Source: Pseudovirgaria hyperparasitica
Taxonomy: Eukaryota
Direction: 5' to 3' (one strand)
Length of the DNA: 64,000 bases
NCBI GenBank assembly: GCA_010093815.1
Contig: ML996584.1
Made by a program: the position numbers and the translations under genes. The notes beneath the pieces are model-generated. The model saw only the letters and a list, made by a program, of their open reading frames with translations. It was not told the DNA's origin and made no database searches. Below are positions 42,895-46,951 of the stretch, piece after piece. Within the stretch, counting starts at the first letter, position 1. The number at the start of each line of letters is the position of its first letter.

Positions 42895-43785
42895 TCAGAA
42901 CACCGCATATGAAACCCTACATATACCTGATTTCCTCGCAATCTTGCGAATCTCAATCCTGCCCACATCACTTGTCCGCGGTAAATGCGTCCCTCCACAC
43001 GGATAACTTCCCACGCCCTCGATCTCTACCGCCCTCAACAACCCACTCGTATCCCCATCCGCCCTGTTACCTGCAAGCATATCTTCCAATCCCTCACATC
43101 CGCCCTGGCACTTCTCTCGCATAGTCTCCACATTCCACCAATGTATATATACCGCAGTGTCTTTCGTCCCGAGTTCGTTTGCTCGTGCTTCGATGGCGGA
43201 TTTATATTCTGATGGAATCGTGCCTTTGAACTCGACGTTTGCGGACCCGGGAACATGCGACGCTTTGCCGTCGATTAGGCCTGCGGATGGTAGTATCTGG
43301 TGCGCTGCAAGGGCAAGGATGTGACCGGCGGTGTGCCAGCGAGAATGAAGAGCTCGTTTTGCGGCATCAATTTCTTGTATGAGAGGGCTTGAGGGTTGGA
43401 AAGACGGTGTGGCGAGGGGGAAAGTGCCGAGGTGCAGAATGCGCGTGGGTTTCGTTACTGAGGAGCGCACAAGGGAGACGACGAATGAGGAGCGTTCGGG
43501 ATCGCGGATGGTGCCGGTGTCGGCGGGCTGGCCGCCGCCTTGAGGGTAGAAGATTGTGCGATCCGTGGTGAGTATGTAGGAGTCTGCAGGAGGAGATTTG
43601 AAGAGGGCTTGGTCAAGTTCAGGGATAGATGAGAACGGGGTGAGGGATGTGAGGGTTGAGGAGAGGATGTGGATGGAGGCGTCGTGGAGGTAAACGCTGC
43701 TGGGCGAGGGTATTGTGGGAGCTTGGTCCTAAAGAAGAATCAGTCAGTACGAAAGATTTTGCTTGAGTTGAGTACTTACAGTCAT
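42895..43785 (-). CDS. Free-standing alanyl-tRNA editing protein (AlaX; ThrRS/AlaRS common domain)
   Basis: Motifs RTIFYPQGGGQPADTG, HSRWHTAGH (HxxxH), YPCGGTH (CxxxH). Tiny first coding exon (ATG ACT) then a GTAAGT intron; an alternative in-frame ATG lies at 43800. Confidence 0.9.
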
Positions 43786-44318
43786 TGTTCTTAGGCGCAT
43801 ACAGTTGTTCTGGATACAAGGTGAGAGGAAACGCGGATTCTAGCTAATGGAAGTGAGCGCCAGAGAGTTGTAAGGTACATCTAGTCTCATTCATTTGCAG
43901 GTAGGCACGTTCTGCCGAATAGCTACACCTTATATGTACACATTGTAAGGTTCCAATTGAGCATCGTTGACTCACTTATTCGACATGCTTCCTGCCGTAT
44001 CATACGAATTAGATGTTTACCAAAGGGCGCGGTGTGACGTGCAATAGACGTGGACTAATCTAACACAAACTTTAGCGAGTCTGCCCACACACGAAATTCG
44101 GGTCAATCTCGGTGATCACTTGCGATTCCGCAGCTCTCCCACGATAGGACTACTCACGACTCTCACCTCGATCTGTCGACTTTGAAGCCCTTCATACTCG
44201 TCCTATCCTTCCCGCTATCCCATATAGCTAGCCTTGACCTGGTACATCCAACCAGAAGGCCCTGTTCGAGACTCCGCAAGTGACAGCCTCTCCTCGCATC
44301 ACCTCACACTCCGCCATC

Positions 44319-45097
44319 ATGGATCAGGCAAAGCTTGCTAAGATGCAAGCGTCGGTGCGCATTGGTAAGTAATTTGCTATAGAACTCCAATAGACATCTT
44401 CTTTCCAACATTTTCATGAATGCTGACATGATATAGGGTAAGCCTTCTCATTTTTATGTCGTAGCTCGGGTCGAGCTTCCGCACACGATACAACCATCCT
44501 ATGATACTGTCGCACACCAGACAGCTATAAGAGTGTGAGCATTACTGACGCGATCCCGCAGCGGCAAAGGCACACCGCGTCGTAAGGTCAAGAAGGTCAG
44601 CCGGACCGGTGGAACCGACGACAAGAAGCTACAAGGAGCATTGAAGAAACTCAATGTGCAACCAATTCAAGCAATCGAGGAAGTCAACATGTTCAAGAGC
44701 GATGGAAATGTTATTCACTTTTCAGCACCAAAAGGTACGCCTGTCTCATGTCCCAAACCACCAGACAGCAGAGCTGTTCCCCAAACTCCGAAACTTTTGC
44801 TATCAAAACAACCTGTTCGTCCATACCCCAGCCCTAACATGACTTCTAGTACATGCATCTGTTCCATCAAACACCTTCGCTATTTATGGCAACGGTGAGG
44901 ACAAGGAGCTGACCGAACTCGTCCCTGGAATCCTAAACCAGCTGGGTCCCGACTCGCTGGCATCACTGCGCAAACTCGCGGAGAGCTACCAAAGCATGCA
45001 GAAAGAGAAGGGTGAGGGCAAGGATGACGATGACGATGATGACATCCCAGACCTTGTAGCGGGGGAGACCTTCGAGGGCAAGAATGAAGTAGAATAA
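44319..45097 (+). CDS. EGD1: Nascent polypeptide-associated complex subunit beta (BTF3)
   Basis: [59 protein letters not shown]. Exons 44319-44364, 44437 (1 nt), 44562-44734, 44849-45097. Confidence 0.95.
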
Positions 45098-45793
45098 GCT
45101 TGAGCAGGTCCAAAGCCGAAAAAATTGCAGTCAAGGACTCGTGGGTATAACTATGAAAATGAAAAAGGCCGATATCGAGCTTCTCATCTCTTTGGCGATT
45201 TATGGCGGACTGGATTGGAACGGAGGTTCCGCAGATAGCACCTCTTTTGTAACCAGCAATTAAGCAATAGGACTCCTCGATGAGGTCCAATGTAAGTACC
45301 TCCTTGCTCTCTGTCCTAATGTGTCGTACTTGAGCATACCAGCAGCACACAGCTGTCGACACGTGTAGAAGAGCTCCCGAACCAGCAAAGATTACCAGAA
45401 AAATGATTTTATTCTGCCCCAAACCCGAGAATCTGAGATGCAGCACTCCCAGAAGCAATCGCTCAACCTGGCAGTGTTTCAGGTGGGGCTGAGCACACAT
45501 GCGCCAAAGTTGCAATCCTGGTGCCTAAATCCTGAGGTGTGCGTTTTGGGGGGGGGCGGTGTACTTCTACTCACCTCTAGTCCTCCCCTCAAACTACTCT
45601 GGTTAATCTGGTTTGTCACTTAGTTTTGCTACCGGTAAGGTGAAAGTCGAGGAGTGCCATTTCCTTGACGTCTCATATGGACTTTTTTCCATTCATCAGA
45701 GCGTATATTGTGTCTAATTGCATTCAAAGCATTTAGTAATCACTCATAGCACGCTGTTACTAAATCACGTTCAGTATTGAGGAATTTGGAAAA

Positions 45794-46951
45794 ATGTCGA
45801 GAGTACAGCAGCTACGGCTGCGCTTCGAGAAAGGAAATGAGTCGCAAATTACACCTAGAAATGTAATCTTTCCGTCGTCAGAGCGTTCGATATTGCGAGA
45901 CGTACTCATATCTGCGCACGGTTTTCAAAAACCGAACAGACAGGAAATCCCAATCATACGTGGGCAGACCCAGCGACAGCCAGTGAGGATATCACAGCAT
46001 ATTGTACCATCCGACTCATACAACATTAAAGCAACTACCGCTGTATCAACACAGCAGCCATTGCCGCCATTAGCACCAAGGATACCTCTTAATCCAGTCA
46101 GAAGCAGGATACAAAACCTCGAAGGGATCCTGCAGAAAGAAACTCGTGCGCTTGTAGAGCACAAGGTTCAAAATGAGAAGCTTCTGTGCAACAAGAGTGA
46201 AGCCGTGGTGCGGCGGCAGAGTTACGCGAAGGAGCGGATGAGACGAGAGCTGGAAGAAAGGGAAGCTCGCCGGCGGTGGTGCGTCTCATGTTTCGAAGAG
46301 GCAGATATGAGTGACATGGTCGAGGCTCCATGCCGACACTGGTACTGCCCAGGTTGTCTATCAGGTAGAGAATCAACTTTTCCGTTCTGGCAGGGGTCAG
46401 CTGACTCAAGGCAGAAGCATTCACGATTTCTCTGACATGCCGCCGCGAATTCCGCTGCTGCTCTATTCCTGCCCCTATCAGTCTTTTACCATCTCCGCCG
46501 TCCAACATATTTGTGTCGCGCTACAACGATCTCGTTTTGGAGCTCAGCACGCCTAATCCATTATACTGCCATAATAGACGCTGCAGCGCTTTCTTACCAC
46601 CTTATCTTCTATTCGGACCCGACATAGCTCACTGCGTAAAATGTTACGCGCAGACGTGTCGACATTGTAGAGGCAGAGCGCATACGGCGACTGTGTGCGC
46701 ACATGATGTTTCCATGAATATGGCGATCCAATTAATAGACAAGGAGGGCTGGAAGAGCTGTCCTACGTGTCGAAATGTAGTGGAAAGGAGCGGAGGTTGC
46801 TTGCATATTACTTGTCGATGTATGACGGTGAGCGTCCTCGATCTGCTATGGATGCCAATAGACGTGCTGTTGACAAAGCGTATAGGAATTTTGTTATCGT
46901 TGTGGTGGGCCGTGGAAAGATTGTGAGAGTAGTTGCGGTGACAATCAGTAA
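45794..46951 (+). CDS. RBR (RING-IBR-RING) E3 ubiquitin ligase-like protein
   Basis: RING1 CVSC..APCRHWYCPGC, IBR PLYCHNRRCSAF..CVKC..TCRHC..H, RING2 WKSCPTCRNVVERSGGCLHITCRC-EFCYRCG. Two short introns. Confidence 0.88.

Follow-up and report, generated by a model that had tools for sequence, protein, structure and literature searches.

Introduction

Exons of a single nucleotide are in print for plants and, in reports of 2025-2026, for fungi. In Arabidopsis, a microexon of this size was described in APC11 (Guo and Liu 2015, PMC4674806), in a paper that also mentions ratchet-point recursive splicing, and the one-nucleotide microexons of APC11 and VPS55 have been traced across land plants, where they were absent from all reference annotations (Yu et al. 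2022, PMC8831610). Among fungi, the long-read annotation of Coprinopsis cinerea contains 13 exons of 1 nt in 13 genes, based on full-length transcripts (PMC12230235). A further case, the one-nucleotide exon of Fusarium CYP621A, was confirmed by SRA reads and is called the first for a fungal gene in that report (Nelson and Syed 2026, PMC12940212).

Here we analyse a stretch of 64,000 nucleotides of DNA (hereafter the window), for which a preliminary description had proposed that an exon of one nucleotide is needed to build NAC-beta. That description called such exons extremely rare, a claim that needs tempering in view of the reports above. In the main texts of openly accessible papers, our searches turned up no account of such an exon in egd1/NAC-beta.

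Results

The gene in question is NAC-beta (EGD1/BTF3) of a Pezizomycotina fungus, with its nearest protein matches in the Dothideomycetes. A Pfam search matched exon 2 to the NAC domain PF01849 (E 1.1e-15; score 57.7 bits, cut-off 21.3), and those of the 1158 database homologues that carry names are NAC subunit beta. The gene lies on the plus strand. The coding part of exon 1 (44319..44364) runs from the ATG at 44319 to ...GTG CGC ATT G, and thus comprises 15 residues and the first letter of a Gly codon. It is followed by intron A (44365..44436, 72 nt), with donor GTAAGT, branch motif GCTGAC at 44422-44427, whose branch A lies 10 nt upstream of the intron end, and acceptor TAG. Then come a lone G (44437..44437), which constitutes the one-nucleotide exon, and intron B (44438..44561, 124 nt), with donor GTAAGC, branch motif ACTGAC at 44544-44549, branch A 13 nt upstream of the intron end, and acceptor CAG. 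Both flanking introns are accordingly complete, with a separate canonical donor, branch motif and acceptor for each. Exon 2 (44562..44734) starts C GGC AAA GGC and encodes the RRK..KK stretch together with the first part of the NAC domain, intron C (44735..44849, 115 nt; GTACGC .. CTAACA .. TAG) is ordinary, and the coding part of exon 3 (44850..45097) ends at the stop codon TAA at 45095-45097. From the end of exon 1 to the start of exon 2, the coordinates and motifs given in the preliminary description were exact to the base.

With the lone G included, the spliced coding sequence is 468 nt long and encodes 155 amino acids. In VRIGGKG, the lone G provides the second base of the Gly codon G-G-C, which is assembled from three exons (G / G / C). 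The basic N-terminal RRK..KK stretch, which we take to be the ribosome-binding motif of NAC-beta, is invariant or nearly so in our NAC-beta protein alignment (A1), and it appears in the spliced product only if the one-nucleotide exon or another in-frame choice is used. An Rfam scan of 44200-45200 returned no matches at E up to 1, and no sign of an intron-hosted snoRNA; a scan for bacterial-type promoters and terminators, which is not meaningful for fungal DNA, returned no sites. The upstream neighbour is a minus-strand open reading frame of 277 residues (42895-43728) with a tRNA_SAD domain (PF07973, E 5.6e-8); it also matches class II alanyl-tRNA synthetase, but weakly and short of the cut-off. 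Downstream, on the plus strand, an open frame of 223 residues (45764-46435) contains cysteine-rich stretches, and Pfam gave nothing for it up to an E of 0.001.

Excision of 44365-44561 as one intron shifts the frame and leads to a stop after 42 residues, and retention of intron B gives GGG TAA, an immediate stop; the frameshift and the GGG TAA stop had been predicted correctly. Retention of intron A is equally terminal (GGT AAG TAA). No single GT/GC..AG intron leaves GGN at the junction. It had also been claimed that only G+G+C restores the protein. G+G+C is indeed the form found in spliced contigs (see below), but the exclusiveness of the claim does not stand, since three other canonical single introns are in frame: one with its donor at 44369 (yielding VRIGNGKG), one with its acceptor at 44569 (VRIGTPRRK) and one with its acceptor at 44539 (a junction stretch of 14 residues). 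Because of these three alternatives, the window sequence by itself is not decisive.

We therefore turn to sequences that record the spliced product. Three public runs (X1, X2 and X3), none of which is recorded as RNA, were compared with 44200-45150 by means of assembled contigs rather than reads, which makes the comparison blind to rare isoforms, transcript starts and expression level. Runs X2 and X3, of unrecorded kind, come from one sample in one study, and X1 is only guessed to be RNA. One contig from X2 and one from X3 cover exons 1, 2 and 3 with 0 differing letters, in a spliced form without introns A, B and C; intron A lies outside their coverage. In both contigs the match breaks off at 44364 and resumes at 44561, with 196 bases left out and 1 letter ambiguous. 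As 196 and not 197 bases are skipped, exactly one extra G is kept, and the mature junction reads ...ATTG-G-CGGC..., which is the cDNA junction that had been predicted and agrees with the claim that NAC-beta needs the one-nucleotide exon. The joint of intron C, placed from 44732 to 44848, skips 115 bases and becomes GT..AG when the cut is set 2 places further right; contigs from X1, X2 and X3 alike, which represent two studies, span it. Run X1, which contributes mostly contigs of relatives, bridges intron C only and stops short of the one-nucleotide exon junction. We infer that the X2 and X3 contigs derive from spliced RNA, and even as a DNA copy of spliced RNA they would record the splice product. 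The two contigs (3131 nt in X2, 2886 nt in X3) extend more than 2 kb past the 3' end of the gene (45150 onward), probably because transcripts of neighbouring genes overlap or were chained in assembly.

The same contigs bear on the possibility that a base is missing from the window through an assembly error, which would fake the phase clash between exons 1 and 2. Only its prior possibility speaks for this explanation. An assembly indel is unlikely because the contigs show no inserted or missing letters relative to the window, and the phase clash recurs in 71 of 71 entries from the best 80 of 399 relatives; we give the explanation next to no weight. The two outcomes that the preliminary description had named as contrary to its reading were thus both absent: the X2 and X3 contigs contain no junction at the 44539 acceptor, and no indel was reported.

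Public gene models provide indirect evidence for the junction. Three protein searches listed 260 proteins, of which 139 carry species names; the remaining 121 were counted as unnamed, including P0088 (labelled Quercus suber) and the nameless P0031. Except for three that were checked, the class labels of the named models are those we presume to be correct. Among these 260 listed proteins, the junction of the RNA type (RIGGK) occurs in 21 of the 139 named models and is wrong in 118, or about 85%, which belong to at least six Pezizomycotina classes (Dothideo-, Lecanoro-, Eurotio-, Leotio-, Pezizo- and Orbiliomycetes). The wrong models have a donor shifted by 4 nt and read RIG-x-GK (26 of 139), carry a deletion at the junction (13), read into the intron (28), miss exon 1 within the 26 residues inspected (50) or show no motif (1). 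By comparison, 59 of the 121 unnamed, transcript-type proteins include exon 1, and all 59 read RIGGK; a further 57 start inside the intron, and 5 are regex false positives of a like sort. The expectation that aligners and gene callers would miss the exon was borne out, inasmuch as the aligner called the joint 'GT..CA' and 118 of 139 named models among the 260 listed proteins are wrong.

These models also provide an argument for supposing that the principal mRNA uses another in-frame canonical single intron, with its donor at 44369 or its acceptor at 44539 or 44569. All three choices keep the frame, the RIG-x-GK form is present in 26 of the 139 named models among the 260 proteins listed, and most gene callers choose introns of this sort. 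However, in the X2 and X3 contigs 44364 is linked to 44561 and to nothing else, none of the 59 transcript-type proteins with exon 1 among the 260 listed shows an alternative junction form, and the alternative donor, GTAATT, has no G at +5. We therefore regard such a choice as very improbable for the main mRNA.

The spliced product taken alone fits a single non-canonical intron equally well, either 44365-44560 (GT..CA) or 44366-44561 (TA..AG), as the extra letter could just as well stem from the G in GT or in AG. Single-step removal of such an intron would give the same product as the path through two introns, its arithmetic works in every relative, and the aligner itself placed the joint as non-canonical ('GT..CA, skips 196', with 1 ambiguous letter). 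The origin of the extra G is decided by comparison with relatives, which points to two canonical introns around it. Metagenome contigs were scanned with alignment A1, giving 399 relatives, the best 80 of which were kept. The first set consisted of 71 entries (70 loci and the window) in which exon 1 was found together with intervening sequence. In none of these 71 entries from the best 80 of 399 relatives does a canonical single GT/GC..AG intron leave three letters; in all 71 the donor is in phase 1 (ATT G|GT) and the acceptor in phase 2 (AG|N GGN), and in all 71 GGN can be obtained through an internal AG|G|GT.

When exon 1 was sought less strictly, 7 loci with a variant or split exon 1 were added, which brought the intron-bearing entries to 78, with 62 distinct intervening sequences among them. 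Every one of these 62, again from the best 80 of 399 relatives, contains an internal AG|G|GT, and the lone letter is always G, in keeping with the earlier proposal to look for AG-G-GT at this position in EGD1 of related fungi. A CTRAY motif lies 5-40 nt upstream of AG|G|GT in 61 of the 62 (best 80 of 399), the sole sequence without it being locus L076, which has CTAAA. Beyond the 62, one locus (L020) whose contig lacks exon 1 has AG|G|GTAAGC, and another (L003) is uninformative, with only 128 nt upstream. When each sequence was shuffled 2000 times, the expectation was 5.4-7.5 of 62 sequences for AGGGT and 0.8-1.0 of 62 for AGGGT with a branch motif (best 80 of 399). For the window alone, AGGGT with an upstream branch motif arose in 0.35-0.7% of shuffles of its own intervening sequence. 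The 62 sequences should not be counted as independent events, since the loci share descent.

Positions -2 to +2 of the internal site are 100% conserved because the sequences were anchored on the motif; the unanchored position -3 is C or T (YAG) in 61 of the 62 distinct sequences from the best 80 of 399 relatives, and in the same sequences the intron B donor has A at +3 in 92%, A at +4 in 79% and G at +5 in 97%. Equivalents of intron A are found in 62 of 62 (54-487 nt, median 92.5), and those of intron B measure 68-252 nt (median 141.5; both from the best 80 of 399). The intron bodies have a mean pairwise identity of 0.40, and in a MAFFT alignment only the donor, branch and acceptor columns are conserved, with the consensus GTa.GT ... 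gCTaAc ... cAG for intron A and GTAaGc ... CTgAc ... acAG for intron B. The bodies of introns A and B are not alike (mean z 0.36, 4 of 62 above 3, best 80 of 399 relatives), and from these comparisons there is no evidence that the two would be duplicates of each other.

The argument is that both full sets of splice signals have survived while their surroundings diverged, and that a single non-canonical intron would let the internal signals decay. Such an intron leaves unexplained the complete internal acceptor-G-donor with its branch motif, which is kept in 61-62 of the 62 distinct sequences (best 80 of 399) although the bodies are unalignable. Every lineage would also have to use a splice site other than GT or AG, and the spliceosome strongly requires the terminal Gs of introns. 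Removal of one non-canonical intron in a single step is consequently highly unlikely in our assessment, and two canonical introns around the G remain the preferred reading.

Several other features of the aligned loci were recorded. At +6, the intron B donor has C in 38 and T in 16 of the 62 distinct sequences from the best 80 of 399 relatives, with GTAAGC as the commonest form (32 of 62), and the intron A donor has T in 89%. At the start of exon 2 (44562 in the window), where the Gly codon is completed by its third letter, the same 62 have A in 25 cases, C in 21, T in 16 and G in 0. Two loci, L040 (about 440-650) and L059 (about 200-376), have one extra intron in exon 1, which separates MD.EKL.. 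from MQ..(V/A)RIG, and they contain the AG|G|GTAAGC site. Intron C is absent in several relatives, the alignment with locus L066 being continuous across its site in L003, L080, L067 and L019.

Each of the 62 distinct sequences from the best 80 of 399 relatives was assigned to a class by its best named protein match. By this measure 35 are of Dothideomycete type, 16 of Lecanoromycete type, 3 of Leotiomycete type, 2 each of Pezizomycete and Orbiliomycete type and 1 of Eurotiomycete type, with 3 unsure or without a match; the weaker of these labels are tentative because the NAC-beta protein is very conserved. When identity had to reach 85% or more and the three best matches had to agree in class, 18 Dothideomycete-type, 6 Lecanoromycete-type, 2 Leotiomycete-type and 1 Pezizomycete-type sequences remain (best 80 of 399). 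Some loci are near-identical to named species, namely Alternaria alternata (100%), Epicoccum nigrum (99%) and Ophiobolus disseminans (99%). A third protein search gave no placement for the L079-type lineage, and neither the best 80 of 399 loci nor the proteins listed included Sordariomycetes, yeasts or basidiomycetes.

Locus L066 (249-716) holds an intron-free NAC-beta open reading frame of 155 residues with long untranslated flanks, reads ATA GGA GGG AAA at the junction, and is 98% identical over 139 residues to an Orbilia brochopaga model. Its intron-free reading of the RIGGK type, set beside the failure of 3 of 3 named Orbiliomycete models at this junction, makes it look like a transcript. 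Judged from its letters, L066 is probably a transcript contig in the metagenome collection, an intronless gene being the alternative; compared with the genomic loci found, it has no same-species match, with identity of at most 82%. Taken together, the layout probably spans the whole subphylum Pezizomycotina. That it is ancestral to the subphylum, including the early-branching Orbiliomycetes and Pezizomycetes, is a reading towards which we lean with some reserve.

Discussion

The presented data make it very probable that NAC-beta contains a constitutive one-nucleotide exon between two canonical U2-type introns that are removed in succession. The mature product, the two sets of splice signals and the conservation of both sets are shown by the data. 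Acceptor A and donor B are one base apart, so that two spliceosomes cannot occupy the site together, and from this, as from the signals and their conservation, we infer that introns A and B are removed consecutively by intron definition. After the first splice, the G would close exon 1 or open exon 2, in each case within an exon of normal size, and the second reaction would be an ordinary splice. Direct joining of donor A to acceptor B would drop the G, with a frameshift and a stop after 42 residues as the predicted outcome. The site contexts are nearly equal before and after removal of the other intron, so that the order of splicing is not readable from the sequence. Removal of the upstream intron A first is slightly favoured because it is transcribed first, and co-transcriptional splicing would favour the upstream intron. 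A precedent in potato invertase, cited for Arabidopsis APC11, has the downstream intron removed first, and an exon of normal size after the first step is also the model proposed for APC11 itself (PMC4674806).

Could the one-nucleotide exon be a regulated switch, such that skipping it produces a frameshifted, NMD-sensitive mRNA and thereby sets the dose of NAC-beta? The form without the G would end after 42 residues, introns A and B are both kept in every lineage sampled among the best 80 of 399 relatives, and plant VPS55 has isoforms with and without its one-nucleotide microexon (PMC8831610). On the other hand, the X2 and X3 contigs contain the included form only and no skipped or retained form, bearing in mind that contigs drop rare variants, and other junctions occur in 0 of the 59 transcript-type proteins with exon 1 among the 260 listed. 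Moreover, introns near the 5' end are expected to persist without a function, as intron loss mediated by reverse transcriptase leaves 5'-proximal introns in place with no need of one. We thus consider a regulated switch unlikely, and likewise the idea that the G is skipped now and then to serve as an NMD-linked valve for the dose of NAC-beta; constitutive inclusion remains the preferred reading.

With this locus, a deeply conserved constitutive case joins a very short list of one-nucleotide exons. If the layout is ancestral in Pezizomycotina, no one-nucleotide exon known from fungi would surpass it in age or spread, and it is located in a housekeeping gene of genetically tractable moulds and retained in essentially every lineage sampled. 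As the gene is present in model filamentous fungi, the way in which the spliceosome handles an exon too small to be recognised is open to ordinary genetics.

The results also expose a systematic annotation error, in which wrong models carry an extra residue, a deletion, a read-in of the intron or a false start, and in NAC-beta these errors adjoin the stretch that contacts the ribosome. A simple rule would repair such models: a phase-1 donor and a phase-2 acceptor with an internal AG|G|GT. Given that aligners report joints of this kind as non-canonical introns, similar cases may hide among junctions of the 'GT..CA' type.

How does this locus compare with the systems already described? Recursive splicing makes use of ratchet points (AG|GT) in long animal introns. 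There, too, the upstream exon is first linked to a position that a new donor follows immediately, and this donor is then used; in this respect the two work alike. A ratchet point, however, keeps zero letters and is found in very long introns, whereas NAC-beta keeps one letter between short introns; with its core of AG-G-GT and one G retained, the site was rejected as a recursive splice site, that is, a zero-length exon. The stwintrons of Pezizomycotina are similar in that two U2 introns in direct contact are removed consecutively, including those of the alternative [D1,2]/[A2,3] type, but in a stwintron the internal intron breaks up a splice signal (donor, branch or acceptor) of the external intron, which functions only after the first excision, and no letter from between the two survives (PMC5587772). 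In NAC-beta, neither intron is interrupted at the outset, and a single letter stays behind. A stwintron was accordingly rejected, as the preliminary description had argued, since the DNA has every donor, branch motif and acceptor of the two introns in unbroken form and the spliced product keeps the G.

The plant microexons of APC11 and VPS55 resemble the present case in being constitutive exons of one nucleotide with two canonical flanking introns, distributed over a very wide clade and explained by a sequential or recursive-like model (PMC4674806, PMC8831610). They belong to another kingdom and to other genes. The APC11 exon is backed by mutagenesis and reporter assays (PMC4674806), whereas the exon of NAC-beta is known here from sequences, and VPS55 has natural isoforms without the microexon (PMC8831610), none of which were seen in the NAC-beta contigs. 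The 1-nt exons of Coprinopsis cinerea are those of a basidiomycete, whereas NAC-beta represents a case in Pezizomycotina.

Fusarium CYP621A has an identical AGGGT core, a lone G that stands second in a Gly codon of a conserved motif, a position between a phase-1 and a phase-2 boundary, and a history of being missed by annotation (PMC12940212). CYP621A is, however, a rarely expressed P450 with 20 orthologues in one genus (PMC12940212), whereas NAC-beta is a housekeeping gene whose layout, unlike that of CYP621A, is found in the DNA of Dothideomycete-, Lecanoromycete-, Leotiomycete- and Pezizomycete-type lineages. In conclusion, the one-nucleotide exon of NAC-beta is of a kind already known, and its breadth across lineages is unusually wide.
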